Both the position numbers and the translations under genes were made by a program. Below are positions 13,163-32,124 of a stretch of 38,664 nucleotides of DNA, one piece after another. The notes beneath the pieces were generated by a model that saw only the letters and a list, made by a program, of their open reading frames with translations, made no database searches and was not told the DNA's origin. Each line of letters starts with the position of its first letter. Positions within the stretch are counted from its first letter, which is position 1. The stretch comes from Actinomycetes bacterium (GTDB lineage: Bacteria; Actinomycetota; Acidimicrobiia; Acidimicrobiales; Bog-793), in contig JAJZCK010000003.1 in assembly GCA_021846125.1 (NCBI GenBank), positions 1 through 38,664 of the forward strand. Reading direction: 5' to 3'.

Positions 13163-13224
13163 CTCGGCAGGTGCGAGCGCACGGCGACGCTCGTTCCGCC
13201 GCGGTCATGGCTTGTCACCGGCAC

Positions 13225-14304
13225 TCAGCCTCCGAGGGAGGCCAAGGAGGACTGGTAGTAGTACTTCGTGATGCTCGGGTTCGACGAGTTCGCCGTCGTC
13301 CCGACGATGTTCGGCACGAGCGTCGCCTTCGGCACCGCCGACTTGTGCCCCGTCAAGATGTCGTACGCGTACTTGACCGCGTCGGCACCCTCGACCGCCG
13401 GCTGCTGGATGACGAGGACGTTGATGACGCCCTTCTTCAAGAGCTTGACCGTAGCGGGCTCCGCGTCGTAGCCGGCGACGAAGATCTTGCCCTTCTTGCC
13501 GGCCGCAGCGATGGCCTCTCCGGCACCTTGTGCACCGTAGAGGTTCGTGCCGAAGATGCCGACGAGCTTCGGGAACTTGAGCACCATGTCCTTGGTCTGG
13601 CTGGCGGCCAGCGTCGGGCTGTCCGTGTTGTACTCGACTGCCGCTACCGACATGTGCGGGTACTTCTTGATCTGCGCGATGAAGCCCGCCTGCCGGGCGT
13701 CGGTCGTCGAGATGCCCGGGTTCACGTTGTCGACGGCGACCTGGCCCGTGTAGTGCGCCAGCTTCGCGATGGTCTCGGCCGCGAGCTCGCCGCCTTGGAA
13801 GTTGTCCGAGGTGATCCTCGCGTCGAGGATGCTCGTGTCGGTGAGCGTCGTGTCGACCGATATGACCGGGATCCCCGCATGGACGAACTTCTCGATCGGC
13901 GCCTTCAACGCGACCACGTCGGTCGGCGCGATGAGCAGGGCGCTCGGGTGCTCCGCGAGGAGCGACTCCACGACCGGGATCTGCGTCGTCGGGCTGAACG
14001 TGGTCCCGCCCTGCCAGATGAGCTTCACCCCGAGCTTCGCGGCTTCCGCTGCTGCTCCGCGCTCCATCGTGATGTAGAACGGATCGACAGTCAGGCCAGG
14101 GACGAGCGCGATCGTGAACTTCTTCGCGGCCTTCGGCGTCGCGGCCACGCGTGCGGCCGACGACGGTGCGACGAGCGCCAGCGACATCGCCGTCGTCCCC
14201 GCTGCCATGACCGCAGCCGAGCCCACGAGGCGCGCTCGACGGCGGGCCGGACCTGATCCCCTTGCTGCGTTCCTGTTGGACATTGCAACCCCCTCGATTG
14301 TCAT
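13225..14304 (-). CDS. Sugar ABC transporter substrate-binding protein (RbsB-like)
   Basis: Signal-like N-terminus, DPFYITMERGA, IPVISVD, SDNFQGG, AGYD, IQQP. Confidence 0.92.
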   Translation of the reverse strand: MTIEGVAMSNRNAARGSGPARRRARLVGSAAVMAAGTTAMSLALVAPSSAARVAATPKAAKKFTIALVPGLTVDPFYITMERGAAAEAAKLGVKLIWQGGTTFSPTTQIPVVESLLAEHPSALLIAPTDVVALKAPIEKFVHAGIPVISVDTTLTDTSILDARITSDNFQGGELAAETIAKLAHYTGQVAVDNVNPGISTTDARQAGFIAQIKKYPHMSVAAVEYNTDSPTLAASQTKDMVLKFPKLVGIFGTNLYGAQGAGEAIAAAGKKGKIFVAGYDAEPATVKLLKKGVINVLVIQQPAVEGADAVKYAYDILTGHKSAVPKATLVPNIVGTTANSSNPSITKYYYQSSLASLGG

Positions 14305-14372
14305 GCTTCTCTCTTTTCCTCTTGGCTAGAGGATCCTGTGCGCGCACCGTGGCGCGCGGGCGGCGTGGCGGC

Positions 14373-15422
14373 TCAGTCCGTGCCGACCACCGTCCGGACA
14401 CGGTCGACGGCCACTGCGCCGACGACGACAGCACCGATTGCAACCTGCTGCCAGAACGGCTGGACGTTCGCGAGCACGAGCCCAGTCGTCAGGAGCGCGA
14501 TGATCGCAGTGCCGATCACGGTCCCGAAGATGGTGCCGCGTCCTCCGAAGATGCTCGCACCTCCGATGACGACAGCTGCGATCGCGTAGAGCTCGTCGTT
14601 CGCGCCGGCGATCGGCGAGGCGGAGGAGAAGTTCGCCGTGACCATCAGACCCGCGACTCCGGCGAGCAGCCCGGAGAGCATGTAGACCCGCACGAGGTGC
14701 CGGTCGACGTCGATGCCGGCGCGGCGGGCGGCGACCTCGTTCGAACCGATGGCGTACGTCCGCAAGCCAAACCTCGTACGTGTGAGCACCAGCCCGAACA
14801 CGAAGGCGAGCGCGAGCGCGACGAGCACCGGGACGGGGAGCCAGCCCGAGATCACGCTCGCAGTGCCGAGGGTCGTGATGAACCCTGGGAGGTTGGTGAT
14901 CTCCGTGCCGTTGTTCAACAGATCGGTCGCTCCGGTCACGGCGGTAAGGGTCCCGAGCGTGACGATGAACGGTGGCAGCTTCATCTTCGTGATGATGAGG
15001 CCGTTGAGAAGGCCGATTCCCGCACCCGTCGCGAGCATGAGGAGGATCCCCGCCGCGACCGTCAGGCCACCAGAGTCGTGCGAGCCGAGCATGTTCGCCA
15101 TCAGCAGCGAGCCCGCCATGGCGGAGAAGCCGAGAGTTGCCCCGTCCGCGAGGTCGATACCAGCGGTGACGATGACGAATGTCTGGCCGATCGCGAGGAT
15201 GAGGTACTCGACCGCGAAGCTCGCGGTGGCGAGCCAGGCTGCCTTCGTGTAGAGCGTCGGAGCCACGGCTCCGAAGGCGACGATGAGCACGACGAGGACA
15301 CCGAGCGTCCACAGCGCCCCGATGCGCTCCATGAACCTCTGGAACCACGGAACCCCGCCGGTCTCGTCCTCGTCGGGCGTCCCCGCCAGATCTCGCTGAT
15401 CCTCCTCGACCTTGAGCATCAT
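14373..15422 (-). CDS. Sugar ABC transporter permease (RbsC-like)
   Basis: QTFVIVTAGIDL, PPFIVTLG, YAIGSNEVAARRAGI, ELYAIAAVVIGGAS. The ATG at 15422 overlaps the ATPase stop. Confidence 0.93.
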   Translation of the reverse strand: MMLKVEEDQRDLAGTPDEDETGGVPWFQRFMERIGALWTLGVLVVLIVAFGAVAPTLYTKAAWLATASFAVEYLILAIGQTFVIVTAGIDLADGATLGFSAMAGSLLMANMLGSHDSGGLTVAAGILLMLATGAGIGLLNGLIITKMKLPPFIVTLGTLTAVTGATDLLNNGTEITNLPGFITTLGTASVISGWLPVPVLVALALAFVFGLVLTRTRFGLRTYAIGSNEVAARRAGIDVDRHLVRVYMLSGLLAGVAGLMVTANFSSASPIAGANDELYAIAAVVIGGASIFGGRGTIFGTVIGTAIIALLTTGLVLANVQPFWQQVAIGAVVVGAVAVDRVRTVVGTD

Positions 15423-16261
15423 CGCGTCGTCTTCCCGGCGAGCATCGCCGAACCCGTGATCCAGCTCACGATGGAGTCGAGGTCGGTCTCCTTCGGCCGG
15501 AGCTCGGCGATGACCCGACCGTGGAAGAGCACGACGACGCGGTCGCAGAGCTCGTAGACCTGGGGGAGGTTGTGGCTGATCAGAAGGACGGGGATGCCGT
15601 GCCCCGAGACGGTCCGGATGAGGTCGCCGACCTTTGCCTGCTGCTCCACGCCGAGCGCTGCGGTGGGCTCGTCCAGGAGCAGCACACGCGACCCCCAAGC
15701 GACGGCCCGGCCCACCGCGACGGCCTGGCGCTGACCGCCCGAGAGCCGACCGACACGGGACGAGACCGATGCGATATGGATCTTCGTCCGGTCGAGGTCC
15801 TCCACGCTGCGAGCCATCATCGCCCGCCGGTCCAGCCATCCCAGCCAGCCGAGCGGTCCCGAGACCGTGCGCTCGCGCCCGAGGAAAAGGTTCGCCCAGA
15901 TGCTGAGGTCCGGCGCGAGGGCGAGATCCTGGTAGACGGTCTCGATGCCTACGTCGCGCGCGTCGGTCGCCGACTTGAACGACACGGGCGCACCGTCGAC
16001 GAGGATCTGTCCGCTAGTCGGATGCAATGCGCCTGACAAGATGTTCACGAGCGTCGACTTGCCGGCGCCGTTGTCGCCGACGAGGCCGACCACCTCGTCG
16101 CGGTGGATCTCGAAGTTGATATCGCGAAGCGCGTGCACGCTTCCATAGCGCTTCGAGACGCCCCGCACCTCGAGGACCGGCTGTCCGAGATCCGGTGACG
16201 CTGCCGCGCCGCGCTGCTCCCCACCGTCCACTGCTCCACCCCCCAAGCTCGGACCGGTCAC
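15419..16261 (-). CDS. Sugar ABC transporter ATP-binding protein (single domain)
   Basis: GDNGAGKST, YQDLAL, LSGGQRQ, LLDEPTAALG, ISH. Confidence 0.95.
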   Translation of the reverse strand: MTGPSLGGGAVDGGEQRGAAASPDLGQPVLEVRGVSKRYGSVHALRDINFEIHRDEVVGLVGDNGAGKSTLVNILSGALHPTSGQILVDGAPVSFKSATDARDVGIETVYQDLALAPDLSIWANLFLGRERTVSGPLGWLGWLDRRAMMARSVEDLDRTKIHIASVSSRVGRLSGGQRQAVAVGRAVAWGSRVLLLDEPTAALGVEQQAKVGDLIRTVSGHGIPVLLISHNLPQVYELCDRVVVLFHGRVIAELRPKETDLDSIVSWITGSAMLAGKTTR

Positions 16262-16424: not shown

Positions 16425-17066
16425 TCACCGCCCTGTCCGGCGCCTCAGCTCCGCGGCCGCAGCCGTCGGCTCGCGCGCAGCGCAGATCGCAGCCACGACC
16501 GCGATGCCCGCCACGCCGGCACCGGCGACCTCGCGAGCCCGCTCGACTGTGATCCCTCCGATGGCGACGCACGGCACCGGCGACACCGCGCAGATCGCAC
16601 GCAGCCCGTCGACGCCGATCGGCGCCGCGGCGTCGGGCTTCGTCGCCGTCGTGAAGACCGGCCCGACGCCGAGGTAGTCGACCGTGCCGGGGGCGAGCGC
16701 CGCCGCCGCCACGGCTTGTGACAGGCAGGTGACGGACCAGCCGATCACGAGGCGCTCCCCCGCGATCTCGCGTGCCATCCCCACCGGGAGATCCGACTGG
16801 CCGAGGTGGACACCGTCTGCGCCGGCTGCGAGAGCGACGTCGAGGCGGTCGTCGACGACGAGCGCGACGCCGGTGCCCGCGAGAAGCTCGCGCAGCCCGA
16901 TCGCCGACACCGTGAGCTCTCGAGCCGTCGCCCGATGGTCACGGAGCTGGACCGCCGTCACCCCTCCTGCGACCGCCGCACGCACCGTCTCCGGTACGCC
17001 TCGGGCACCGCACGCCGCGGCATCGGTGACGAGGTAGAGGCGCGGGTCGAAAGTTGCCCGGCTCAC
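16425..17066 (-). CDS. thiE: Thiamine-phosphate synthase
   Basis: LYLVTD, VQLRD, VDDRLDVA, GVHLGQSD, GPVFTTATKPDA, AIGGI; lies downstream of thiM. Confidence 0.95.
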   Translation of the reverse strand: MSRATFDPRLYLVTDAAACGARGVPETVRAAVAGGVTAVQLRDHRATARELTVSAIGLRELLAGTGVALVVDDRLDVALAAGADGVHLGQSDLPVGMAREIAGERLVIGWSVTCLSQAVAAAALAPGTVDYLGVGPVFTTATKPDAAAPIGVDGLRAICAVSPVPCVAIGGITVERAREVAGAGVAGIAVVAAICAAREPTAAAAELRRRTGR

Positions 17067-17070
17067 CGCG

Positions 17071-17874
17071 TCACCCGCCGGCCACAGTGCGGGACTCCTC
17101 GGACAAGGCTGCGAGCTCGTCGAGAAGAGCGACGGCGAACGATCCCGGACCGGGGCTCCCGCCGGCGGCACGCTCCCCGGCACGCGCGAGCACGGCAGAT
17201 GCGGCCGACGCTGCGAGAAGGACGTCGGCCTCGACGGCGGCGAACGCCGCGACGAGCGCGCCGAGCGCGCAGCCGACCCCCGTGACCCTCGTCATGAGCG
17301 GGCTCCCGCCCGGGACCGCGACGACGTCCGCGCCGTCGGTGACGTAGTCGACCGCGCCGCTCACGGCGACAACGCAGCCGGCGGCACGCGCGAGCGTGAG
17401 CGCCGCACCGAGAGCTTCGTCCGATCCTGCTTGCGAATCGACGCCCCGCCCGCCGGGACCGGCACCCGCGAGGCTCATGATCTCGGATGCGTTGCCTCGC
17501 ACCACCGACGGGCGCGCCGCGAGCAGCTCCCCGGCGAAGCGCGTCCGGTGGGCGAGGGCGCCGACGGCAACCGGGTCGAGGACCCACGGCCGTCCCGCCG
17601 CCGCCGCGCCCGTCGCCGCCGCGCGCATCGCGACCTCGCGCTCGGCCGAGAGGGTGCCGAGGTTGACGAGGACGGCACCGGCGGTCGCGGCGAACTCCCC
17701 GGACTCCTGCGAGTTCTCGACCATCGCCGGAGACGCGTCCACGGCGAGGAGCACGTTCGCCGTGAAGCCCGCCACGACGACGTTCGTCAGGCAGTGGACG
17801 AGGGGATGCCCCGCCCGCACCTCGGCCAAGAGCTCCGGCACACGACGATCGGTCCAGGTCAGCTCGGAGTGCAT
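17071..17874 (-). CDS. thiM: Hydroxyethylthiazole kinase
   Basis: PLVHCLTNVV, ASPAM, VNLGT, WVLDPVAVG, RGNASEI, GVDS, VTGVGC. Confidence 0.95.
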   Translation of the reverse strand: MHSELTWTDRRVPELLAEVRAGHPLVHCLTNVVVAGFTANVLLAVDASPAMVENSQESGEFAATAGAVLVNLGTLSAEREVAMRAAATGAAAAGRPWVLDPVAVGALAHRTRFAGELLAARPSVVRGNASEIMSLAGAGPGGRGVDSQAGSDEALGAALTLARAAGCVVAVSGAVDYVTDGADVVAVPGGSPLMTRVTGVGCALGALVAAFAAVEADVLLAASAASAVLARAGERAAGGSPGPGSFAVALLDELAALSEESRTVAGG

Positions 17875-18087: not shown

Positions 18088-18747
18088 GTGGCGACGAAGG
18101 ACGTGAAGGCTGGGGGGCACGAGACGGAGCCTGGGCCCGACGGCAGCGAGGCCGACCCGGGCGCCACCTATCGCCAGCCGAAGAGCCTGCGGGAGATCGC
18201 GAGCGACCTCTGGCGCCCGAGGTTCGGCACGCGGCCGGAGCCTGGCGCCGGCCAGCGGGCGCCGACCACGAAGGACGTCGTCAACGGCCTCGCCCGCAAC
18301 GAGCTCGCCATCGGCACGGCTCTGCTCCTCGCCGAGCTGGCGATCACGATCGCGGACTACGTCGTCTGGCACCACTCGCACGACCTGAAGCTTCGCCAGC
18401 TCGCGCCGGACGCCCTCGTCGCCGGACTCGTCGGCACGGCGATCATGGCCCTCGGCGTGGCGCTCCACCGCCGCGCCCTGCTCGGTTTCGCAGCCTTCAT
18501 CGTCGGCATGGAGTCGATCTCCTTCGGCAACGTCTTCGGTCTCATCTACCTGTTCTTCGGGGGATGGCTCATCATGCGGGTCATGCGCAAGCAGCGCCAG
18601 GACAAGGCCCTCGGCCTCGCGGCGTCGTCCGCCGACCCCCGCAGGACCACGCGGTCGGCCCGCTCGGCGCGACCGGTGCCGTCGGGACCGAAGCCGTCGA
18701 AGCGCTACACCCCGCCGCGGCGCTCGGCCGCGGCGAGGAAGCGGTGA
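18088..18747 (+). CDS. Hypothetical membrane protein (3-4 TM, basic C-terminal tail ...PSKRYTPPRR)
   Basis: Hydrophobic segments and GC3-rich codons; TACCCT -10 candidate 8 nt before the GTG suggests a leaderless start. Confidence 0.75.
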   Translation: MATKDVKAGGHETEPGPDGSEADPGATYRQPKSLREIASDLWRPRFGTRPEPGAGQRAPTTKDVVNGLARNELAIGTALLLAELAITIADYVVWHHSHDLKLRQLAPDALVAGLVGTAIMALGVALHRRALLGFAAFIVGMESISFGNVFGLIYLFFGGWLIMRVMRKQRQDKALGLAASSADPRRTTRSARSARPVPSGPKPSKRYTPPRRSAAARKR

Positions 18748-18828: not shown

Positions 18829-21252
18829 ATGATCGCCGACGCGCTCGCCGGCAAGAGGATTGCCGTCACCGGGGCGACCGGCTTCCTCGGCACCGCTCTC
18901 GTCGAGCGCCTCCTGCGCAGCGTTCCAGGGTGCGAGGTCGTCCTGCTCGTGCGACCGGGTCGTCGGCTCGACGCAGCGGAGCGCACGGCACGCGAGATCT
19001 TGCGCAACGACTGCTTCGACCGGCTCCGGGCCGAGCTCGGCGACGGCTTCGCCGGCGAGGTCGCTCGCCGCGTCACCACGATCGCCGGCGACGTCGGGAC
19101 CGACGGCCTCGGCCTCGACGACCAAGCACGGGCCCTGCTCGCGAGCTGCGACGTGGTCGTCCACTCCGCGGCGACGGTCAGCTTCGACGCCCCGCTCGAC
19201 GGCGCCGTCGAGGTCAACCTGCTCGGTCCGAGCCGTGTGGCGGCCGCGATGCTCGACGCAGCGCGTGCCTACCGGCCCGCCGCTCGGCCACTCCCCCATC
19301 TCGTCGCCGTGTCGACCGCCTATGTGAACAGCGGTCACCACGGGGACGCCAGCGAGGAGCTCGTCACGCAGAGCCGCTACCTCGCTCTGCCGGACTGGCG
19401 CGGCGAGGTCGCTGCCGCGAGGCGCTCCCGCTCCGACGCCGACGCGGAGAGCCGGACGCCGGCAAGGCTCGCCGAGCTCCGCAAGGCCGCCCGGCGCGAG
19501 CTCGGCGCAGCGGGGACCGCTCTGCTTGCCGAGCGGACCGAGAAGCTACGCGGGGAGTGGGTGGACGACACGCTCGTCGAGCTCGGCCGGTCTCGCGCGC
19601 AAGCGCTCGGCTGGCCCGACGCCTACGCCTACACGAAGTCCCTCGGCGAGATGGCGCTCGGCGACAGCTGCGAGGACCTCCCCGTGTCGATCGTGCGCCC
19701 ATCGATCGTCGAGTCCGCCCTCGCGGAGCCGCGCCCGGGCTGGATCCGAGGCTTTCGCATGGCCGAGCCGGTCATCATCTCCTACGCCCGTGGCCTGCTC
19801 CGGCAGTTCCCCGGCGTCCCGGAGGGAGTCGTCGACGTCATACCGGTCGACCTCGTCGTCGCGGCCATCATCGCCGTCGCCGCGCACGGCCCGGAGGTCG
19901 CCGGCGGCGGTGACGGCTGCGATCCGGCCGTGTACCAGGTCGCGTCCGGCGTGCGGAACCCGTTCCGCTACGGCACCCTCGTCGACCTCTGCGAGCAGTG
20001 GTTCACCGAGCGACCCCTCTACGACGCCAAGGGCCAACCGATCGTCGTTCCCACCTGGTCCTTCCCCGGCCGTGGCAAGGTCCAGGGCGACCTGAGGCGC
20101 GCCGCGAAGGGCCTCCAGGCGATCGAGCGCATCGCGAGCATGCTGCCGGTACGCGGCGCGCTCGCCGAGAGGGTCAGCGCCGTCGAGGAGAAGCGGGACC
20201 TCGCGGAGCGTGCCCTCGGCTACGTCGAGCTCTACGGCGCCTACACCGAGACCGAGGCACGCTTTCGCGTCGACCGGACCCTCGCGCTTTACGACTCGCT
20301 CGACGACACCGACCGCACCGACTTCTGCTTCGACCCCGCTGTCGTCGACTGGGAGCACTACGTCACCGAGGTGCACCTGCCGTCGGTCGTCGCGCACGCT
20401 CGGGTCCGGACCTCGCCGGGCCGGCGTGTCACGGCGAGCAGGGAGGACCGGGCGCGGGCGGCGATCCTGTCGTCCGAGCCACGCTGCGCGGTGTTCGATC
20501 TCGAGCAGACCCTCGTGAGCTCGAACGTCGTCGAGTCGTACGCGTGGCTCGCGACACGTCACCTCGCCCCGCTCGCACGAGCACGGCTGGCGGTCCAGCT
20601 CGTCGCCGAGGGTCCTCGTCTCCTCGCGCTCGACCGCCGAGACCGCGGCGACTTCCTCCGCTCCTTCTACCGCCGCTACGAGGACGCCCCGGCCGAGCGG
20701 GTCCGTGACGACGCCTGGGAGCTGTTCGGCGACCTGATCCTCACCCGGTCGTTCCCCGACGGGTTGCAGCGGGTCCGCGACCACCGTGCGCTCGGCCACA
20801 AGACCCTGCTCATCACCGGTGCGCTCGACTTCGTCGTCGCGCCGCTCGCACCGCTGTTCGACGAGATCGTCTGCGCGCGCCTCGGCGAGCTCGACGGCAG
20901 GTTCACCGGTGAGATGGTCGCGACACCGCCGACCGGCGAGGCCCGCGCGCTTCTCATGGAGCGCTGGGCGGCATCGTTCGGGCTCGGCAAGGAGTCGACC
21001 GTCGCCTACGCGGACTCGACGAGCGACCTGCCGATGCTCGAGGCAGCCGGCCACCCGGTAGCGGTGAACCCCGAGCCGAAGCTCTCCGCTGTGGCACGCA
21101 AGCGCGGCTGGCCGGTCGAGCTCTGGCAGCAGACGCGTGGTGGACCGCGCCGGCCACTCGCCGTGTCGACCCGGCGGGTCGGCACGCGCACCCCGGCGCC
21201 GCGGGCGGCTGCCGCGGGCAACCCGGCACCGGAACGAGGACGGCTGTCGTGA
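18829..21252 (+). CDS. Fusion: fatty acyl-CoA reductase (male-sterility/NAD_binding_4) plus HAD-IB (SerB-like) hydrolase
   Basis: FAR half: TGATGFLG, HSAA, VSTAYV, YAYTK, RPSIV, DVIPVDLV. HAD half: FDLEQTL, LITGA, YADSTSDLPML, AVNP. Confidence 0.88.
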   Translation: MIADALAGKRIAVTGATGFLGTALVERLLRSVPGCEVVLLVRPGRRLDAAERTAREILRNDCFDRLRAELGDGFAGEVARRVTTIAGDVGTDGLGLDDQARALLASCDVVVHSAATVSFDAPLDGAVEVNLLGPSRVAAAMLDAARAYRPAARPLPHLVAVSTAYVNSGHHGDASEELVTQSRYLALPDWRGEVAAARRSRSDADAESRTPARLAELRKAARRELGAAGTALLAERTEKLRGEWVDDTLVELGRSRAQALGWPDAYAYTKSLGEMALGDSCEDLPVSIVRPSIVESALAEPRPGWIRGFRMAEPVIISYARGLLRQFPGVPEGVVDVIPVDLVVAAIIAVAAHGPEVAGGGDGCDPAVYQVASGVRNPFRYGTLVDLCEQWFTERPLYDAKGQPIVVPTWSFPGRGKVQGDLRRAAKGLQAIERIASMLPVRGALAERVSAVEEKRDLAERALGYVELYGAYTETEARFRVDRTLALYDSLDDTDRTDFCFDPAVVDWEHYVTEVHLPSVVAHARVRTSPGRRVTASREDRARAAILSSEPRCAVFDLEQTLVSSNVVESYAWLATRHLAPLARARLAVQLVAEGPRLLALDRRDRGDFLRSFYRRYEDAPAERVRDDAWELFGDLILTRSFPDGLQRVRDHRALGHKTLLITGALDFVVAPLAPLFDEIVCARLGELDGRFTGEMVATPPTGEARALLMERWAASFGLGKESTVAYADSTSDLPMLEAAGHPVAVNPEPKLSAVARKRGWPVELWQQTRGGPRRPLAVSTRRVGTRTPAPRAAAAGNPAPERGRLS

Positions 21253-22502
21253 GGGAGATCCTCGTCGAGCGGAGCCTTGCCCGCTTCGCCGCCGCGCGCG
21301 CCGCGTCGGTGGTCGCCGGCGCTGGCAGCGGCATCACCGTCGGGCCACTCCGCCTCGCCGACCGCGAGCCTCGGGCGCTGCCGGGCCCGGACTGGCATCG
21401 CGTCTCGCCCGTGCTCGCGGGGATCTGCGGCTCCGACCTCGCGACAGTCGACGGGGCGAGCTCGCGTTACTTCGAGTCGATCGTCAGCTTCCCCTTCGTC
21501 CTCGGGCACGAGATCGTCGGCACGGTCGGTGGCGGACGTCTCGCGGGCTCCCGGGTGGTCGTCGAGCCGGTGCTCGGCTGCGTCGCCCGCGCGATCGAGC
21601 CGCCGTGCCCGGCATGCGCGGCCGGCCGCAAGGGCGCTTGCGAGCGCATCGCCTTCGGCCACCTGAAGCCGGGCTTGCAGACGGGCTTCTGCGCGGACAC
21701 GGGCGGCGGCTGGTCGGACGGCCTCGTCGCGCACACGTCACAGCTGCACGCGGTGCCGGCGGAGCTGTCCGACGAGGCTGCGGTCATGGTCGAGCCGGCG
21801 GCGTGCGCGATCCACGCGGCACTTCTCGGCGCCGTCGTCCCGGGCGAGCGGGTCGTCGTGCTCGGCAGCGGCACGCTCGGTCTCGCCACCCTCGCCGCTC
21901 TGCGCCACTACGGCCAGCCTGCAGTCGTCGTCGCGGTCGCGAAGCACCCCGTCCAACGTGATCTCGCGGAGCAGCTCGGCGCCGACCAGGTCGTACGCCC
22001 CGAGGAGCTCGAGCGCGCCGTGCGGCGGCTCACGGGCTCCCTCGGCCTCGCGGGAGGAGGATCGCCGTCACGCCTCACCGGCGGCGCGGACGTCGTCTTC
22101 GACTGCGTCGGCTCGTCCTCGTCGATCGCCTCCTCGCTGGCGGTCGTCCGCCCCGGTGGGCGCGTCGTGCTCGTCGGGATGCCGGGCACGGTGCGGCTCG
22201 ACCTCGCGCCGCTCTGGCAGCGCGAGATCGCGCTCGTCGGTGCCTACGCCTACGGCACGGAGCAGACCCCAGACGGACCGAGGTCGACGTTCGACCTGGC
22301 GTTCGAGCTCGTCGCGGCTGCGCGCCTCGAGCGGCTCGTCTCGGCCCGCTACCCTCTCGAGCGCTACGAGGAAGCTGTGCGCCATGCTGCGAACGCAGGA
22401 CGGCGCGGCGCCGTGAAGGTCGTGTTCGCCATCGGCCGATCCTCCTCACCGGCCTGGCGGTCCGGGCCCCCGAACACCGAGAGCGTGGAGACGAACGCGT
22501 GA
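21249..22502 (+). CDS. Zn-dependent alcohol dehydrogenase (MDR family)
   Basis: GICGSD, GHE, C..PPCPAC..C, EPAA, GSGTLG; GTGA overlaps on both sides. Confidence 0.9.
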   Translation: MREILVERSLARFAAARAASVVAGAGSGITVGPLRLADREPRALPGPDWHRVSPVLAGICGSDLATVDGASSRYFESIVSFPFVLGHEIVGTVGGGRLAGSRVVVEPVLGCVARAIEPPCPACAAGRKGACERIAFGHLKPGLQTGFCADTGGGWSDGLVAHTSQLHAVPAELSDEAAVMVEPAACAIHAALLGAVVPGERVVVLGSGTLGLATLAALRHYGQPAVVVAVAKHPVQRDLAEQLGADQVVRPEELERAVRRLTGSLGLAGGGSPSRLTGGADVVFDCVGSSSSIASSLAVVRPGGRVVLVGMPGTVRLDLAPLWQREIALVGAYAYGTEQTPDGPRSTFDLAFELVAAARLERLVSARYPLERYEEAVRHAANAGRRGAVKVVFAIGRSSSPAWRSGPPNTESVETNA

Positions 22503-24088
22503 GTCCGAGACCTGGTTTCGTCCTCGAGGTGGACCGTTCGACACCACCGACGTTGTTCTGGCACGGCGAAGGGTGGCGGCTCGAGCGCCTTCCCGCCGGC
22601 AGTCGTGTCGTCTACCCGCCGGAGCCCCTCCCCGCTCTCGAGGACCCTGACGCTGCGATCCGCCACGCGCTGGAGCATCCCGCGGGCGACTCCTCGCCGC
22701 TCTCCGCGCTACTCCGTCCCGGCGCCAAGGTGACGATCGCGTTCGACGACGTCTCGCTGCCGCTTCCCCCCATGCGCGCTCCCGACGTGCGCCAGCGCGT
22801 CGTCGAGGCCGTGCTCGACGCGGCCGCAGGAGCGGGCGTCGACGACGTCGTGCTGATCGCCGCGCTCGCGCTCCACCGGCGGATGACAGACGCGGAGCTG
22901 CGCCACGCGCTCGGGTCCCGGGTGTTCGACGCGTTCGCCCCGCACGGCCTGCTCCTCCAGCACGACGCGGAGGACCCGGCCGGTGTCGTCCACCTCGGCC
23001 TCACGGACCACGGCGAGGACGTCGAGATCAACCGCCGCGCGGCCGAGAGCGACCTTCTCGTCTACGTCAACATCAATCTCGTCGCGATGGACGGCGGCCA
23101 CAAGTCGGTGGCGACGGGCCTGGCGAGCTACAAGAGCATCCGCCACCACCACAACGTCCGCACGATGCAGCAGAGCCGCTCGTTCATGGACCGCCACCAC
23201 AGCGAGCTCCACACGTCGAACTGGCGCATGGGCCGGCTCATCGCGAAGGCAGGTGTCAAGGTCTTCCAGATCGAGACCACCTTGAACCTCGACACCTTCC
23301 CGTCGCAGTTCTCCTTCCTGCAAAAGCGCGAGTGGGAGTGGTCTCTCCGGGACCGTGCTGCGTTCCACGCGACGAGCGCGGCGCTCGAGCGCACCCCGGC
23401 AGGGCTCAAGCGCCAGATCTTCCAGTCGATCCGCTCGCCACACGCGCTCACCTCGGTCCACGCTGGCGAGGTGGAAGCGGTCCACGAGCTCACGCTCGCA
23501 GACGTCCACCGCCAGCAGCTCGTACGCGTCGACGGCCAGGCCGACGTCCTCACGATGGGCCTTCCATACATCTGCCCGTACAACGTCAACTCGATCATGA
23601 ACCCGATCCTCGTCGCGTGCCTCGGGCTCGGGTACTTCTTCAACCTCTACCGGGGCAGGCCGCTCGTGCGCGAGGGGGGGGTGTGCATCATGTCGCACCC
23701 GACGCCGTGGGCGTTCAACCCAGTCCATCACCCGAGCTACATCGACTTCTTCGAGCAGGTGCTCGCCGAGACCGTCGACCCGCTCGAGATCGAGGCCAAG
23801 TACGAGGAGTCGTTCGCCACCGATCCGTGGTACGTCCACCTCTACCGCACCTCGAACGCCTACCACGGGGTGCACCCGTTCTACATGTGGTACTGGTGCG
23901 CGCACGCCCTCCAGCACCTCGGGCAGGTGATCGTCGTCGGCGGCGACAGGGCGGCCGTCCGCAGGCTCGGCTTCAAGCCCGCCTCGAGCCTCGCCGACGC
24001 GCTCGAGATGGCCGAGGACGTCGTCGGGCGCGACCCGAGCATCACCCACCTGCACAACCCACCGCTGTTCCTCGCCGACGTCACGTGA
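22499..24088 (+). CDS. Lactate racemase (LarA/DUF2088) domain protein
   Basis: IAFDDVSLP, ALALHRRMT, HDAED, INRRAAESDL, GGHKS follow the order of the LarA N-terminal motifs. Confidence 0.8.
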   Translation: MSPRPGFVLEVDRSTPPTLFWHGEGWRLERLPAGSRVVYPPEPLPALEDPDAAIRHALEHPAGDSSPLSALLRPGAKVTIAFDDVSLPLPPMRAPDVRQRVVEAVLDAAAGAGVDDVVLIAALALHRRMTDAELRHALGSRVFDAFAPHGLLLQHDAEDPAGVVHLGLTDHGEDVEINRRAAESDLLVYVNINLVAMDGGHKSVATGLASYKSIRHHHNVRTMQQSRSFMDRHHSELHTSNWRMGRLIAKAGVKVFQIETTLNLDTFPSQFSFLQKREWEWSLRDRAAFHATSAALERTPAGLKRQIFQSIRSPHALTSVHAGEVEAVHELTLADVHRQQLVRVDGQADVLTMGLPYICPYNVNSIMNPILVACLGLGYFFNLYRGRPLVREGGVCIMSHPTPWAFNPVHHPSYIDFFEQVLAETVDPLEIEAKYEESFATDPWYVHLYRTSNAYHGVHPFYMWYWCAHALQHLGQVIVVGGDRAAVRRLGFKPASSLADALEMAEDVVGRDPSITHLHNPPLFLADVT

Positions 24089-25074
24089 GCCCTGCACCCG
24101 AGCGTCCCGTCACCCGGGGACACTCCTCGCCCGTCGTCCGGCTGCCGCGCAAGATGCTCGGTGCGCTCGCTCCCCCGACCTGGCCGGGGACGGTCGAGCG
24201 GCCCCTGCCGCGCAGCCACGTCGGCACCGACTACGACACGAGCTGGTCCCGTACCCCCGTCGCGCGGCTCGCGCGGGCGATGATCACCGACAACATCACC
24301 CGGCCGTTCGTCCGCCTTGCCGCGGCGCCGACAGTCGTCGGTGCCGAGCACCTCGACCCGCTCCGCGGTCCCGTCATCTTCGCTGCGAACCACTCGAGCC
24401 ATCTCGACACCGCGATCGTGCTCAGCGCGCTCCCCGTGCGCTACCGCCACCACTGCGTGGTCGCGGCCGCGGCCGACTACTTCTTCGACCGGCGCTGGAA
24501 GGGCGACCTATGGTCGCTCGCCCTCGGCACGATCCCGATGGAGCGCTCCCGGGTGAACCGACGCAGCGTGGACCTCGCCGCCGAGCTCGTCGCAGACGGC
24601 TGGAGCGTGGTCATCTTTCCCGAAGGCGGGCGGACAACCGACGGCTGGGGCCAGGAGTTCCGCGGCTGGACCGCGTACCTCGCGAAGCGCTGCGGCGTGC
24701 CCGTCGTCCCGGTCCATCTCCACGGCGTGCGGCCGATCTTCCCGAAGGGCGGGAACCGCCTCCGGCCGGGCGAGGTCGAGGTCCGCTTCGGCGCTCCGCT
24801 CCGGCCGCTCACAGCCACCGCGACAGCCTCGGAAGGTGGGCACGGTCGCGAGGAGGACGCACGCCGTTTCGGCGCGCGCGTGGAGCAGAGCGTCGCCGCT
24901 CTCGCGGACGAGGCGGAGACGGACTGGTGGTCCGCTCGCCGGCGCGCGGCGCGAGGTGAGACACCCGACCTGCGGGGCCCTGACGCCGCAGCGTGGCGCC
25001 GGGCGTGGTTGCTCCCCGAGAGCCGGCGCTCGAACGCCGGTGTGCGCCGGCGCACCCCCTCCGCACCCTGGTGA
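24085..25074 (+). CDS. Lysophospholipid acyltransferase (PlsC family)
   Basis: NHSSHLD (HX4D), AAADYFF, FPEGGRT, VPVVPV. The GTG at 24085 overlaps the LarA-like stop. Confidence 0.9.
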   Translation: MSPAPERPVTRGHSSPVVRLPRKMLGALAPPTWPGTVERPLPRSHVGTDYDTSWSRTPVARLARAMITDNITRPFVRLAAAPTVVGAEHLDPLRGPVIFAANHSSHLDTAIVLSALPVRYRHHCVVAAAADYFFDRRWKGDLWSLALGTIPMERSRVNRRSVDLAAELVADGWSVVIFPEGGRTTDGWGQEFRGWTAYLAKRCGVPVVPVHLHGVRPIFPKGGNRLRPGEVEVRFGAPLRPLTATATASEGGHGREEDARRFGARVEQSVAALADEAETDWWSARRRAARGETPDLRGPDAAAWRRAWLLPESRRSNAGVRRRTPSAPW

Positions 25075-25304: not shown

Positions 25305-25319
25305 ATCGTTTGCAGCGAT
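25305..25319. promoter_or_regulatory. Putative LysR box ATC-N9-GAT (T-N11-A)
   Basis: ATCGTTTGCAGCGAT overlaps the LysR start and its TATCGT -10 candidate, about 60-70 bp upstream of the divergent sRNA start. Confidence 0.5.
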
Positions 25320-26301
25320 GGATCTCCGGCAGCTCAACGCTCTCGTCGCGATAGCGGAGCACGGATCGTTCTCTGCCGCCGCCGACGCGCTCGCGACGGT
25401 CCAGTCGAACGTCTCGACCCATGTGAAGAAGCTCGAGCGGGAGCTCGGCACGGTCCTCGTCGACCGGGCGACCGGCGAGCTCACCGAGGCGGGGGAGCTC
25501 GTCGTCAACCGTGCACGCCGGGTCATCGGCGAGCTCGACGCGATGACCTCGGACGTCACCGCGCTCAGTCACGAGGTGGTGGGGACGGTCCGCCTCGGCG
25601 CTATCGGAACGGCGGCGCGCTGGATCGTGCCGCTGCTGCTCGACGAGGTCCCCGGTCGCCACCCGATGCTCCATCTCGTCTTCGTCGAGGCCACCGGGCT
25701 CGGCCTCGACGCCCAGCTCGCGCTCGGCCAGGTCGACGTCGCGGTCATCGCGCTCCCTGCGTCTGGGAGCGAGGTGCGGACGATCCCGCTGTTCCGCGAA
25801 GATCTCGGCCTCGTCGTGCCCCGCGGCCACCCGCTCGACACCGGCGAGCCGGTCGACCCGGCCATCCTTCCAGAGCTGCCCCTCATGCTGCCGCTGCCGG
25901 GAAGCTCGTTCCGCGACGAGCTCGACGCAGTCGCTCGTGCGGCTGGTGTGGCGCTGCGGCCCCGCGCCGAGATGGACAGCCTGCGTCTCATCGCGACGCT
26001 CACCTTCGAGGGCTGCGGCTTCTCGATCCTGCCGGCCGGGGCGTTACCCTCCTTCCTCGAGGACTCGTGGGTGCTGCTTCCCGTCCGCGGGCTCCAGCCC
26101 CGGCTCGTCGGCGTTGCGCAGCGCCGGCGCGGCCTGCCTGGCGCGCCGGTGCGTGCCGTGCTCGACATCCTTGCCGAGGTCGTCATGGACGAGGACCGCA
26201 CGCCGCACGGCGTCTACCCCGTGGCGGGCTCCCGCCACATGAGCCAGAGCGGCGGACCACCACCGGGAGCGGCGACCTCTCCTGTCACGACGAAGCCGTG
26301 A
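25318..26301 (+). CDS. LysR-family transcriptional regulator
   Basis: MDLRQL..IAEHGSFSAAADAL..VQSNVSTHVKKLERELG..L.DR..LTEAG. Confidence 0.95.
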   Translation: MDLRQLNALVAIAEHGSFSAAADALATVQSNVSTHVKKLERELGTVLVDRATGELTEAGELVVNRARRVIGELDAMTSDVTALSHEVVGTVRLGAIGTAARWIVPLLLDEVPGRHPMLHLVFVEATGLGLDAQLALGQVDVAVIALPASGSEVRTIPLFREDLGLVVPRGHPLDTGEPVDPAILPELPLMLPLPGSSFRDELDAVARAAGVALRPRAEMDSLRLIATLTFEGCGFSILPAGALPSFLEDSWVLLPVRGLQPRLVGVAQRRRGLPGAPVRAVLDILAEVVMDEDRTPHGVYPVAGSRHMSQSGGPPPGAATSPVTTKP

Positions 26302-26810
26302 CGGCCGTAGAACTCGACGTTCTCCCGCTTCGAGCACTCGAGGTAGGCCGGTAGGCGGTCGGCGTCGCACCGCTGGAGAACGGGCGCGAGCAGCGCGGAG
26401 CCGACACCGCGACGCTGGCGGGCCGGATCCGTACCGATCGTGCCGAGATAGTAGTGCCGGCTGCTCGGGTGCCGTGCGGCGAGCAGCATCGAGAGCCGGC
26501 GCGTCGCGAGGAACCGCTCGGAGAGAAGTGGGACGAGCCGGAGGTGGGCGAGCACGTCCCGGGTCCGTGGCGCGAGCGGCGTCGGGGGCATCCACAGCGC
26601 CGCAGCGACACCGTCGGAGACGGTGTAGACCTCGCCGCGCGGCAGGTAGTTGTGCAGGAGCTGGACACCGAAGAACCGGCTGAGCCGCTCCTCACGGTGC
26701 GACGCGTCGGGGAAGATGTACGCCGCGACGGGATCGTCTGCAAAGGCACGGCCGAGCGCCGCAGCGACTGCCGGCACGTCGCCCTTCCGCGCCAGGCGCA
26801 CCTCCCCCAC
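26214..26810 (-). CDS. GNAT N-acetyltransferase (puromycin N-acetyltransferase-like)
   Basis: AFADDP, AALW, HYYLGTIGTDPARQRRGVGSALL, AYLE, NVEFYGRHGF; TAGCAT -10 candidate 7 nt before the GTG. Confidence 0.88.
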   Translation of the reverse strand: MGEVRLARKGDVPAVAAALGRAFADDPVAAYIFPDASHREERLSRFFGVQLLHNYLPRGEVYTVSDGVAAALWMPPTPLAPRTRDVLAHLRLVPLLSERFLATRRLSMLLAARHPSSRHYYLGTIGTDPARQRRGVGSALLAPVLQRCDADRLPAYLECSKRENVEFYGRHGFVVTGEVAAPGGGPPLWLMWREPATG

Positions 26811-26921
26811 GCTCGCGATGCTACTTCCCCGCTGGTGCCTCCCCGCTGATCCCGCGCTCGTGCGGACAACGGCCACGGCTGCTCGTGGAATCTCGAGCCC
26901 TCGCGAGACGTTGGCCTATGC

Positions 26922-27542
26922 ATGACATCCGATCCTCCAGGGACCTCCGCTTTCTCCGTCAACTTCGACTATCGCTGCCCCTTCGCACGCAACGCGAACG
27001 AGCATGTCGTCACCGCGCTCCGAGCGGGCGCGCCCTGGCAGGTCCACTTCGCTCCCTTCTCGCTCACCCAGGTCCATCTCGAAGAGGGGGAGCCTGCCGC
27101 GTGGGAGCAACCCGCCAAGCGGCCGGAGCTCGTCGCCGTCGCGGCCGGAGTCGCCGTGCGTGAACGCTTTCCCGACGCCTTCCTCGCTGTCCATCTCGAG
27201 CTGTTCCGCGCACGCCACGACGAGCACGGCGACCTGCGCGACGACGGGGTCGTTCGCGCCGCTCTCGCCCGGGGCGGCGTCGACCCCGACGCCGTCTACG
27301 CCGAGCTCGAGGATGGCTGGCCGTTCGCGACGCTCGCGAGCGAGCACGAGGAGGCTGTCGCGGAGCACGCTGTCTTCGGCGTCCCGACGTTCGTGACGGG
27401 CACGGAGGCGGCTTTCGTCCGCATCATGACTCGACCCGCTGGCGACGCGGATCTCGCACGGCGGACAATCGAGCGCGTCCTCGGCCTGCTCGGTGATGCA
27501 CCCGAGCTGAACGAGGTGAAGCACACTACGGTCCCGCGCTGA
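26922..27542 (+). CDS. DsbA/thioredoxin-fold protein (FDYRCPFA, single Cys; Rv2466c/FrnE-like)
   Basis: FDYRCPF near the N-terminus and the cis-Pro loop FGVPT. Confidence 0.8.
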   Translation: MTSDPPGTSAFSVNFDYRCPFARNANEHVVTALRAGAPWQVHFAPFSLTQVHLEEGEPAAWEQPAKRPELVAVAAGVAVRERFPDAFLAVHLELFRARHDEHGDLRDDGVVRAALARGGVDPDAVYAELEDGWPFATLASEHEEAVAEHAVFGVPTFVTGTEAAFVRIMTRPAGDADLARRTIERVLGLLGDAPELNEVKHTTVPR

Positions 27543-27561
27543 CTGCGGGACCGTAGTGCCG

Positions 27562-28605
27562 TCAGCTGTCGAGAGAGATCGGCTCGTCGTCCCGCGTCCC
27601 CGAGCCGAGAGCCACCTCCACCGGAACCGCAGCACCTGCCTGGCGGATTCGCTCGTCGAGCTCGACCACGAGCTCGGGGCTGTCCCGCAAGAACTGCTTC
27701 GCGTTCTCACGCCCCTGGCCGAGCTGCTCGCCTTCGTAGGTGTACCAGGCTCCCGACTTCTTCACGATCGCGAGGTCGACCGCGACGTCGAGGATCGAGC
27801 CCTCGCGACTGATCCCCTTGCCGTACATGATGTCGAACTCCGCCGTGCGGAACGGCGGGGCACACTTGTTCTTCACAACCTTCACCCGTGTCCGGTTGCC
27901 GACCATCTCGGAGCCGTCCTTGATCGACTCGACCCTACGGATGTCGAGGCGCACGGACGAGTAGAACTTGAGCGCACGGCCGCCAGGAGTGACCTCCGGA
28001 GAGCCGTAGATGACACCGATCTTCTCCCGCAGCTGATTGATGAAGAGTGCGATCGTCTTCGACTTGCTCAGCGTACCGGTGATCTTGCGCAGAGCCTGCG
28101 ACATAAGGCGGGCCTGGAGCCCGACGTGGCTATCGCCCATGTCGCCTTCGATCTCGGCGCGCGGCGTCAGCGCAGCGACGGAGTCGATGACGATGACGTC
28201 GATCGCTCCCGAGCGGATCAGCATGTCGGCGATCTCGAGCGCCTGCTCACCGGTGTCGGGCTGGGAGATCAACAGCTCGTCGATGTCGACCCCGATCGCC
28301 GACGCATAGACGGGGTCCATCGCGTGCTCGGCGTCGATGTACGCCGCGACCCCGCCGTTGCGCTGGGCCTCCGCGACGACGTGCAGTGCGAGCGTCGACT
28401 TTCCCGACGACTCGGGTCCGTAGAGCTCGACGATCCGACCGCGGGGAAGGCCACCGACGCCGAGAGCGAGATCGAGCGACATCGCACCCGTGGAGATCGC
28501 CTCGATCCCCATCGTGAGGCTCTCCCCCATCCGCATGACAGAGCCCTTGCCGAACTGCTTCTCGATCTGGCCGAGCGCCGCCTCGAGTGCCTTGTCCCGC
28601 TCCAT
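27562..28605 (-). CDS. recA: Recombinase A
   Basis: [62 protein letters not shown]. Confidence 0.99.
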
Positions 28606-28764
28606 GTCTCTCCCTCTCCTCGCGGACCGGGCCGCTCCGGCGGCTCCGTGGCCGATCTCCACCTTGACGAGCGCACCCTACGAGGGTGCTGTATCAGCCG
28701 GTTCCCGTCACCGTCGGCCCGGGTGCCCGTCGGCCGGCCCGGCCGACTTGCACGACTGTAGTTC

Positions 28765-28778
28765 CGAACGTGTGTTCG
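28765..28778. promoter_or_regulatory. LexA SOS box CGAAC-GTGT-GTTCG upstream of recA
   Basis: Matches the Gram-positive/actinobacterial GAAC-N4-GTTC consensus; a TACAGT -10 candidate (minus strand) lies at 28755-28760. Confidence 0.88.
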
Positions 28779-28850
28779 GTGGTGGATGGTAGCCGCACGC
28801 CGCGACGCGCGGCGCCGGCGCAAGCCGGGGTGGACCGGGCCCGGGCGGGC

Positions 28851-30098
28851 TCAGGTCTCGGCGAGGAGGCGGCGGCGGAGCTCGTCGAGGGTGGAGATGG
28901 TGCCGATCTGGCGGATCCGCTCGCGGGAGCCGGAGAGCCGGAGAGCCACCGCGTCCGGCGGCGATCCGGGTAGCGCTATGCCGGCGAAGCCGGTGCCCGG
29001 CGGCAGCCCTTCCTGCGCGTCGGGCCCGGCAACCCCCGTCGTCGCGACGCCGACGTCCGCACCGAGCAGGCGCCGGACGCCCTCGGCCATCGCGGCGGCT
29101 GCGTCCGGCGTGACGACCGGTCCCTCGGGGACGGCGAGGACGGCGTGCTTCACCTCGCTCGCATACGCGACGACGGCCCCACGGAACCACAAGCTCGCAC
29201 CCGGTAGGGCAACGATACGAGACGCGATGAGGCCGCCGGTGAACGACTCGGCGACGGCGAGCGTCCGGCCACGCGCGACGAGCAGCGCCCCGACGGCGTG
29301 CTCCATCGTCTCGTCGTCCACGCCAAACACCACCTCGCCGACGAGGGCACGGATCTCCGCCTCCTCGGCGTCGAGGGCGGACTCGGCTCTCGCCAGGCTC
29401 GGCGCCTTCACCGTCAACCGGAGCTTGATCCCCTCGATCCCGCTCGCGAGGAACGCGATCGTCGGTGCGCCCGGTCCGGCGGCGTCGAGCGCGTCGAGAC
29501 GGGGCGCGACGATCTCGGCAAGCCCCGACTCACTCGTCCCCCAGGTCCGCAGCGTCCTGCTGACGATGACCGCCTGCTCGCCGGCCCGGGAGAGAAGGTC
29601 CGGCAGCACTGCCCGCTCGACCATCTCCCGCAGCTCGTCGGGCACCCCGGGAAGCGCGTAGACGACCTTCTCCCCGACCGGGCAGACGAGCCCGGGCGCA
29701 GTCCCGATCCGCTGCTCGATCGGTACGGCACCGACAGGAAGGTCCGCCTGCTTCGCGTTGATCGCAGCCATCTGCCGACCGCGAGCGGCGAACACCGCCT
29801 CGACAGCTGCGAGCAGTCCGGGGTCACGCCGGATCGGGACGCCCATGACCGCGGCGATCGCCTCACGCGTGATGTCGTCCTGGGTCGGGCCCAGGCCACC
29901 GCAGACCACCACCGCATCCGATCGCCCGAGAGCGACCTGCAGCGCCTCGACGATGCGCTCCAGGTTGTCGCCCACCCGGGTCTGGAACAGGCAGTCGATC
30001 CCCGCGCTCGCCAGCTGCTCCGCGATCCAGGTCGAGTTCGTGTCGACGATCTGGCCGAGGAGCAGCTCGGTCCCGACGGCGACGATCTCCGCGCGCAC
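28851..30098 (-). CDS. cinA: Competence/damage-inducible protein CinA (MoCF domain plus PncC domain)
   Basis: VGTELLLGQIVDTNS, GGLGPTQDDIT, GTAPG, LPGVP, AESFTGG, TTGVAGP; directly upstream of recA. Confidence 0.95.
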   Translation of the reverse strand: MRAEIVAVGTELLLGQIVDTNSTWIAEQLASAGIDCLFQTRVGDNLERIVEALQVALGRSDAVVVCGGLGPTQDDITREAIAAVMGVPIRRDPGLLAAVEAVFAARGRQMAAINAKQADLPVGAVPIEQRIGTAPGLVCPVGEKVVYALPGVPDELREMVERAVLPDLLSRAGEQAVIVSRTLRTWGTSESGLAEIVAPRLDALDAAGPGAPTIAFLASGIEGIKLRLTVKAPSLARAESALDAEEAEIRALVGEVVFGVDDETMEHAVGALLVARGRTLAVAESFTGGLIASRIVALPGASLWFRGAVVAYASEVKHAVLAVPEGPVVTPDAAAAMAEGVRRLLGADVGVATTGVAGPDAQEGLPPGTGFAGIALPGSPPDAVALRLSGSRERIRQIGTISTLDELRRRLLAET

Positions 30099-30105
30099 GT
30101 CCCGC

Positions 30106-32045: not shown

Positions 32046-32124
32046 TGCACCAGCCTAGCAACACCCGTCGCTGGGGCCCCTCGCGCTGCTCCACGAGCCG
32101 CGCTCGGGTGTCGGGGCCCACGCG

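Follow-up and report, generated by a model that had tools for sequence, protein, structure and literature searches.

The window analysed here, the whole stretch of 38,664 nucleotides at positions 1 to 38,664 of contig JAJZCK010000003.1 (assembly GCA_021846125.1, Actinomycetes bacterium), is a high-GC contig (~68-74% GC) of a genome of 2.83 Mb in 304 contigs, and its closest named relatives are metagenome-assembled genomes of Acidimicrobiales. It carries four consecutive genes, which encode a reductase-HAD fusion (P0001), a zinc-dependent dehydrogenase (P0002), a homologue of the lactate racemase LarA (P0003) and a PlsC-type acyltransferase (P0004). We consider it probable that they form one operon for ether lipids of the 1-O-alkylglycerol type, a compact relative, found in Actinomycetota, of the myxobacterial elb operon. 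Direct support comes from the homology of the four modules to elb genes, from their linkage, from the cofactor-binding residues of the LarA homologue and from the presence of cofactor synthesis genes in the genome; what we infer is the product, the order of the steps and the role of every enzyme.

The four genes and their predicted products

The genes follow one another on the same strand (Table 1), and the motif GTGA stands at all three junctions, at positions 21249, 22499 and 24085. This motif is common, occurring 117 times in the whole window, so the overlaps carry weight only in combination with the position of the stop and start codons and with the conserved order of the genes. Alignments with relatives begin at residue 1 in genes 2 and 3, in support of the starts given here. 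In gene 4, the alignments with most relatives do not begin until residue 17-31, and an alternative start is available (Table 1), so that the third overlap is plausible rather than secure. The three start/stop overlaps on which the original prediction had built its coupled unit therefore hold at the first two junctions and are least certain at the last.

Table 1. Positions in the window of the four operon genes and of a possible further gene upstream (ORF, open reading frame; aa, amino acids)
Feature	Position	Strand	Length	Remarks	Basis
Gene 1 / P0001, reductase-HAD fusion	18829..21252	+	807 aa		ORF and Pfam
Gene 2 / P0002, Zn medium-chain dehydrogenase	21249..22502	+	417 aa		ORF and Pfam
Gene 3 / P0003, LarA family, LarAH14/15/16 (ElbC-position) type	22499..24088	+	529 aa		Lar_N, NF052592
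Gene 4 / P0004, PlsC-type acyltransferase	24085..25074	+	329 aa	alternative start ATG 24154	PF01553
Possible small membrane-protein gene	18150..18747	+		start not fixed; outside the conserved core	ORF without Pfam match

Residues 1-540 of P0001 correspond to a fatty acyl-CoA/acyl carrier protein (ACP) reductase, with the Pfam domains NAD_binding_4 (PF07993, E 8e-57) and Sterile (PF03015), the motifs GATGFLG at 15, STAY at 162 and YAYTK at 266, and a clear relative among solved structures in the fatty acyl-CoA reductase (FAR) 7eoz (E 1e-66). They are followed, at residues ~552-770, by a HAD-IB phosphatase domain (PF12710, E 4e-25) related to the solved HAD-IB protein 3fvv (E 4e-19). The HAD nucleophile, Asp557, is present within motif I (FDLEQT at 556; residues 556-561, window positions 20494-20511), the +2 position of which holds Glu (D-L-E) in place of the usual Asp, and a DSTSD motif stands at 729. 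The D-L-E form is also seen in most HAD domains of the related operons and in 19 of 37 proteins from the ElbB position of the elb-type loci described below, and D557, T561 and DS.SD are common to P0001 and these ElbB-position proteins.

P0002 combines the Pfam domains ADH_N (PF08240) and ADH_zinc_N (PF00107), and every one of its NCBIfam matches lies far under the respective cut-off. It contains GICGSD at 58 (Cys60), GHE at 86 (His87-Glu88), cysteines at 111, 120, 123 and 131, and GSGTLG at 206; we take Cys60 and His87-Glu88 to belong to the catalytic zinc, and the four cysteines to the structural zinc site. Its closest solved relatives are ketose reductase and the sorbitol, xylitol and L-idonate 5-dehydrogenases, and the protein is accordingly predicted to be a zinc-dependent medium-chain dehydrogenase of the polyol/ketose-reductase type. 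These relatives act on a C2 hydroxyl or ketone beside a primary alcohol, which by analogy would be the chemistry of a glycerone backbone.

P0004 is a PlsC acyltransferase by its Pfam match (PF01553, E 6e-19), its motifs HSSHLD at 103 and PEGG at 179, and its similarity to the solved PlsC protein 5kym (E 7e-11). In none of the four operon proteins did Pfam detect an AMP-binding or PP-binding domain, such as a synthetase/ACP module would have, or a fatty-acid 2-hydroxylase, and a flavin-type AGPS gene was likewise not found in the operon. The domain analysis thus agrees with the arrangement read from the sequence at the outset: a FAR domain fused to HAD (PF07993, PF03015 and PF12710 in one protein), an acyltransferase encoded as a separate protein, and no synthetase or ACP module.

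Conservation of the operon and comparison with elb loci

A scan of one genome per species for relatives of P0003 returned at least 567 stretches, and we examined the best 80 loci, all of which are labelled Acidimicrobiales or Actinomycetota except for one Acidobacteriota and one 'bacterium'. The gene order of the window recurs in these loci, with the reductase-HAD gene in 74/80, the dehydrogenase in 78/80 and the acyltransferase in 79/80. The first of these counts leaves out locus L027, whose sole match to P0001 is a HAD-only stretch of 126 residues on the opposite strand. Wherever the reductase or the dehydrogenase is missing, the contig ends just upstream; one locus (L094) is without the acyltransferase despite 7 kb of downstream DNA. 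Of the four operon proteins, the LarA homologue varies least across the Acidimicrobiales loci (73-91% identity, versus 42-85% for the other three).

At the level of the phylum, we surveyed an even sample of 401 genomes, some of which are flagged unpublished. A LarA match at E <= 1e-30 is present in 135 of them and an operon-type LarA homologue (rows of at least 53% identity) in about 107, and metagenomes hold thousands of 90%-identity clusters of the homologue. Twenty loci from 20 published genomes of this sample were then examined: the reductase-HAD gene, the dehydrogenase and the LarA homologue are kept together in 15, with the acyltransferase adjoining in 13 of the 15, and in five loci (L134-L138) the LarA homologue is 40-45% identical and none of the other three operon genes lies alongside. 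The co-occurrence of the four genes, which had been named as a check on the original prediction, therefore extends over Acidimicrobiales and other families of Actinomycetota.

The low-identity loci have neighbours of their own. A family III CoA-transferase adjoins the LarA homologue in two of the four annotated ones (L134 and L135, both from family f37), which hints at a CoA-ester substrate in this 40-45% subgroup, and a large HEAT-repeat protein is encoded nearby in L134. In L138 (genome G159, 48% GC), the LarA homologue is followed by an ElbE-like NAD-epimerase, and, at a distance of 5 kb on the opposite strand, there is a stretch that matches the HAD domain; the locus could be an elb-like set whose genes are scattered, and no reductase is seen in it.

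The elbA-E ether-lipid operon of Myxococcus xanthus was reportedly described by Lorenzen et al. in 2014. According to a review, elbB encodes a HAD-like phosphohydrolase, elbC a protein of unknown function, elbD a protein with reductase, acyl-CoA synthetase, ACP and AGPAT-like acyltransferase domains, and elbA and elbE NAD-dependent epimerase/dehydratase proteins, and insertions in elbD and in elbE lower the amount of ether lipids (PMC9131029). When the first 540 residues of P0001 were searched among longer proteins, 91 of the 94 matches had the ElbD architecture (FAR, AMP-binding, ACP, acyltransferase), with E down to 7e-86. The matches to longer proteins are 26-38% identical over 63-100% of the 540-residue query, and the source names in the ElbD set include Myxococcota, Anaeromyxobacteraceae, Pyrinomonadaceae, Vicinamibacteria, Gemmatimonadota and Armatimonadota. 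Furthermore, elbD homologues are reported from Actinobacteriota genomes of the Black Sea (PMC11868695). We aligned 18 ElbD-type proteins and used the alignment to collect 80 ElbD-type loci from metagenomes; it is these loci, and not M. xanthus DNA itself, that make up our elb comparison set.

In this set, a LarA homologue lies directly upstream of ElbD and on the same strand in 48 of the 56 loci whose upstream sequence spans 1800 nt or more, and its end is visible at the contig edge in 7 of the 24 loci with less. This ElbC-position protein is 42-56% identical to P0003 over residues 8-528, and a HAD gene precedes it in 42 of the 48 loci. Locus L165 illustrates the arrangement, with a HAD gene, the LarA homologue, a 1474-aa ElbD-type protein and an NAD-epimerase in succession, which is the published elbB-C-D-E order (PMC9131029). 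The original prediction had named a HAD hydrolase and a DUF2088/LarA-like protein as neighbours of ElbD, and for these metagenome loci this was right on both counts. The remaining modules correspond as well: between the HAD domain of P0001 and the ElbB-position gene, two places upstream of ElbD, identity is 29-36% (42 loci), and P0004 is 29-40% identical to the C-terminal acyltransferase domain of ElbD-type proteins.

Thus the idea of a rearranged elb-like system is well founded in that the reductase, HAD, LarA and acyltransferase modules are all homologous to genes of elb-type loci. The operon shares with M. xanthus elbA-E a reductase of the male-sterility type, an acyltransferase of the PlsC/AGPAT type and a HAD phosphohydrolase (ElbB), and the ElbC position, as seen in the metagenome ElbD loci, carries a protein of the LarAH14/15/16 type. 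It differs from M. xanthus elb in that the reductase is fused to the HAD domain and not to synthetase, ACP and acyltransferase, in that the acyltransferase is free and the AMP-binding and ACP modules are absent, and in that a zinc medium-chain dehydrogenase replaces ElbE/ElbA, which are of the short-chain dehydrogenase/reductase (SDR) type. Indeed, a P0002-like dehydrogenase was found in 0/80 ElbD loci, in line with its earlier description as an addition to the elb set, and ElbE-like SDR genes in 62/80. No ElbE-like SDR lies beside the operon in the window or in the 15 operon loci of the phylum sample, and just two of the 80 Acidimicrobiales loci have ElbE-like matches, which are weak (25-33% identity) and lie 2-6 kb beyond the acyltransferase. 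Given the contrast between 0/80 and 62/80, the zinc dehydrogenase looks like a non-homologous stand-in for the SDR.

To place the reductase domain, we searched it against 1.84 billion representatives, obtained 820 relatives at E <= 1e-30 and built a tree from 90 of them. The domain of the window falls within a clade of 23 rows, and the other side of the tree mixes ElbD-length proteins, reductase-acyltransferase fusions and stand-alone reductases, the last of which were confirmed at 530-565 aa in 5/5 cases checked. These fusions (4/4 checked: P0295, P0328, P0288 and P0262, ~800-840 aa) and the stand-alone reductases count among the closest relatives of the window's domain, and the architecture of the four fusions is MXAN_1675-like. 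From this comparison, the window's reductase belongs to the same subfamily as that of ElbD, one often fused to acyltransferases. Two very long public proteins, P0125 and P0149, were considered as fusions of reductase-HAD, dehydrogenase and LarA homologue and rejected: their homologous stretches alternate with out-of-frame filler, and they stem from high-GC contigs with frameshifts, where the wrong frames remain open.

The LarA homologue and its cofactor

P0003 contains a Lar_N domain and scores 898.9 bits against NF052592 (LarAH14/15/16), well over the cut-off of 740. The same model was passed by 2/2 operon proteins and 3/3 ElbC-position proteins tested (the latter at 804-843 bits) and missed by 3/3 LarA homologues from other gene contexts (419-535 bits), which come from the five loci of 40-45% identity. 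The residues of P0003 were read from an alignment with the solved one-histidine enzyme 9q2u and 174 relatives; the full LarA alignment has 179 sequences, with 125 of the operon type and 49 from the ElbC position, three of the sequences coming from genomes flagged unpublished. Conserved in P0003 are His126 (the first catalytic histidine), Lys202 (the cofactor tether), His217/His218 (nickel ligand) and Asp83/Asp84 (ribose-binding). The canonical two-histidine pair of the racemase (His108 and His174 of L. plantarum LarA) is not complete, the second histidine not being kept, and Asn193 occupies the position of lactate racemase's second catalytic histidine. P0003 is in this respect, as in its score over the cut-off, like LarAH groups 14 and 15 (PMC7583248, NF052592), which also have no counterpart of His174 (PMC12611868).

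The cofactor-binding residues are kept widely. Lys202, His217, His218 and Asp83/84 are retained in at least 97% of the 125 operon-type and at least 95% of the 49 ElbC-position sequences. In an alignment of 31 sequences, which includes the sequences from loci L128 and L129 of family f28, His126, Lys202, His218 and Asp83/84 are invariant and His217 is retained in at least 90%. The likeness between the two groups goes beyond these positions, as operon-type and ElbC-position proteins have the same conserved residue in 100 columns, among them a C-terminal set rich in His, Tyr and Trp.

The AlphaFold model of P0003 has a predicted local distance difference test score (pLDDT) of 94.5. In fold it comes closest to the one-histidine enzymes 9q3k and 9q3j, with template-modelling (TM) scores of 0.82-0.84 normalised to the target, and racemases come next; the 17 best listed matches are all LarA-family entries. 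The solved one-histidine enzymes LarASp and LarABw (9q2u/9q3k and 9q3j; PMC12611868) are thus the best matches of P0003 by sequence (E 3e-36) and by fold, and they share with it the Asn at the second-histidine position, the tethering Lys and the nickel-binding His. They differ from it in being just 22-24% identical in the structural alignment, in coming from carbohydrate-type gene contexts and in belonging to group 17, not 14/15 (PMC12611868). We also built a LarA tree with the second LarA homologue of this genome as its root, on a very long outgroup branch; each of the three sets, operon-type, ElbC-position and other-context, is split off from the rest by one branch.

The characterised LarA-family enzymes all act on 2-hydroxy acids (PMC7583248; PMC11770544), LarAH groups 14 and 15 are without a known reaction (PMC7583248; PMC12611868), and one-histidine homologues have been suggested to move a hydride to a neighbouring site (PMC7583248).

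The genome encodes larB (two copies), larC and larE. One larB is adjacent to larC on contig C78, the second lies on C131 and larE is on C48 (G000). Contig C124 carries the second LarA homologue, which is so divergent that BLAST does not connect it to P0003. Among sampled genomes of the window's order and class, larC is present in 17/17 with a LarA homologue and in 0/13 without.

Upstream of the operon region, the block at 6095-16261 holds genes for sugar acids and sugar uptake, and in relatives it shows no linkage to the operon. One long ORF in it has a UxuA-like mannonate dehydratase domain, and further genes encode FGGY and PfkB kinases, a P-loop kinase-like protein (AAA_33), an ABC ATPase and a periplasmic sugar-binding protein. 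A 'LarAH15' has been assigned as a gluconate epimerase (PMC11770544), and we considered a tie between the LarA gene and these mannonate and sugar-acid genes 10 kb upstream. We dropped this link, since the lipid genes accompany the LarA gene in every relative examined for the operon. Directly upstream of the operon region, thiE (TMP-TENI) and thiM (hydroxyethylthiazole kinase) occupy 16425-17874 on the minus strand. An ORF resembling the possible membrane-protein gene of Table 1 is found upstream of the operon in 16/80 Acidimicrobiales loci. The region downstream, 25318-32054, encodes a LysR regulator, a GNAT protein, a DsbA-like protein, a pgsA-like CDP-alcohol phosphatidyltransferase, a MiaB-type radical SAM enzyme, recA and cinA; a LysR-like gene is present somewhere, whatever its position, in 34/80 related loci. 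No TetR regulator was seen flanking the operon, which has thiM and an ORF without a Pfam match upstream and the LysR gene downstream.

A candidate ether-lipid route and its alternatives

The animal and myxobacterial FAR1-GNPAT-AGPS route (MXAN_1675/1676 in M. xanthus; PMC9131029) resembles the operon in its reductase and acyltransferase logic and differs from it in that the operon is without a flavin-type AGPS gene. In the route that we propose, the reductase domain of P0001 would reduce a fatty acyl thioester to a fatty alcohol or aldehyde, as FAR1 does, and the PlsC enzyme would supply an acylated glycerone-phosphate or glycerol-phosphate backbone, in the manner of GNPAT. The polyol-dehydrogenase-like zinc enzyme could then reduce the 2-keto group, a job that the SDR-type ElbE may do in elb clusters, and the HAD domain would remove a phosphate. 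The LarA homologue is the only conserved operon enzyme left without an assigned step. Since matching the operon to the animal route in this way leaves one step and one protein, the LarA homologue becomes the candidate for the ether-forming step, which it might carry out, with the nickel-pincer nucleotide and a single catalytic histidine, in place of the animal flavoenzyme alkyl-dihydroxyacetone-phosphate synthase. In such a reaction the histidine could deprotonate the backbone, with the pyridinium carbon of the cofactor serving as electron sink or hydride carrier. The more far-reaching claim, that ElbC-type LarA homologues are the missing ether-bond-forming enzymes, of a nickel-pincer-nucleotide type, in the aerobic bacterial elb pathway, is one that we put forward tentatively and would sooner doubt than take for granted.

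Several observations weigh against the operon as an ether-lipid pathway or against this role for its LarA homologue. The original prediction expected the FAR and LarA proteins to group with their elb counterparts, and this stood only as far as homology goes: the reductase tree does not place the window's domain as a specific sister of the ElbD reductases, and the LarA tree leaves the deep order of operon-type, ElbC-position and other homologues unsettled. The published evidence on elb also has gaps, as one paper states that a role of the elb proteins in forming the ether bond is not conclusively established and that ether lipids were undetected in Pontiella, which has elbD homologues (PMC11868695). 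A LarAH14 protein of Frankia was inactive on seven 2-hydroxy acids (PMC7583248), which leaves its reaction open and says nothing for an ether-forming role. In both loci examined from family f25, no acyltransferase adjoins the operon, though the reductase-HAD gene, the dehydrogenase and the LarA homologue are present. Finally, in family f28, larC is found in 11 of 20 genomes with a LarA homologue and was not seen in the other 9. Five f28 genomes (G014, G074, G116, G183 and G387; 94-98% complete) have no match to TIGR00299/PF01969 (larC) and no larB over the cut-off, and their operon is complete, its LarA homologue intact (loci L128 and L129). The f28 homologues keep the cofactor-binding residues. 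With no larC and no larB over the cut-off in these operon genomes, the dependence on the nickel-pincer nucleotide is not secured everywhere.

An ether lipid could also be made by another mechanism, in which the reductase goes no further than the fatty aldehyde, this combines with glycerol phosphate into a hemiacetal, and the LarA homologue acts as a hydride relay, taking a hydride from the C2 hydroxyl and delivering it to the activated C1' carbon; the zinc dehydrogenase would then restore the C2 hydroxyl, and the acyltransferase would act only afterwards, at sn-2. The two f25 loci without an adjacent acyltransferase fit an ether step that needs no acylated precursor. We nevertheless regard this mechanism as unlikely, since no precedent for it was found in the literature consulted and since the ElbD-type proteins and the reductase-acyltransferase fusions tie the two enzymes together physically, which fits a precursor that is acylated first.

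Alternatively, the product could be a fatty-alcohol lipid or a diol lipid that has no ether bond, such as wax-type esters or long-chain 1,2-diol or 2-hydroxy lipids, the LarA homologue isomerising a 2-hydroxy fatty acid or an alpha-hydroxy aldehyde. Such a substrate would accord with the 2-hydroxy acids used by all characterised members of the LarA family (PMC7583248; PMC11770544), and reductase and acyltransferase alone could yield fatty-alcohol esters. This reading is distinctly unlikely: PlsC-type enzymes are acyltransferases of the glycerol-phosphate backbone and not wax synthases, the operon has no fatty-acid 2-hydroxylase, Asn193 replaces the second catalytic histidine that racemisation needs, and M. 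xanthus genetics tie the same set of modules to ether lipids (PMC9131029). A genome search for WS/DGAT (PF03007) and CarF (PF10520) gave no match, which carries no weight, the controls having matched in no genome.

The five intact-operon genomes without larC, and without larB over the cut-off, and the inactivity of the Frankia homologue in vitro (PMC7583248) might suggest that the LarA homologue no longer performs cofactor-dependent catalysis and acts instead as a scaffold or as a subunit that binds lipids, leaving the chemistry to the other three enzymes. This is very improbable, because the protein is the most conserved of the operon, keeps His126, Lys202, His218 and Asp83/84 invariant in the 31-sequence alignment, f28 included, and tracks larC exactly within the window's order and class.

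The ether-lipid operon that we favour bears on a group of Actinomycetota with known lipids. In family f25, all 31 sampled genomes have the LarA homologue, and that of locus L126 shares 79% identity with a protein listed by NCBI as DUF2088 of Rubrobacter radiotolerans, which in turn is 54% identical to P0003. A 2023 paper on Rubrobacterales, going by its title, reportedly finds mixed ether/ester lipids to be dominant in this order, and its abstract reportedly mentions a putative 1-O-alkylglycerol phosphate operon resembling that of other aerobic bacteria. If so, the operon has already been noticed in print for Rubrobacter. In the literature searched, we found no paper that names DUF2088 together with a fatty acyl-CoA reductase, and for elbC and ether lipids none but the review, in which the function of ElbC is given as unknown (PMC9131029). 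A link of the LarAH14/15 group to a lipid operon was not found in the searchable texts, which exclude the supplementary context table of PMC7583248.

Two open questions meet in this operon, namely how the ether bond is formed in the ElbD pathway (PMC9131029, PMC11868695) and what reaction LarAH14/15 proteins catalyse. The actinobacterial version, with four genes and no synthetase or ACP module, offers a convenient set for reconstitution. Furthermore, organisms that carry the operon could be an overlooked source of the non-isoprenoid alkylglycerols that are used as environmental markers. If the LarA homologue is catalytic, this would be the first role of the nickel-pincer cofactor in a lipid pathway, and if ElbC-type LarA proteins do form the ether bond, bacteria would need nickel for part of their ether-lipid synthesis.

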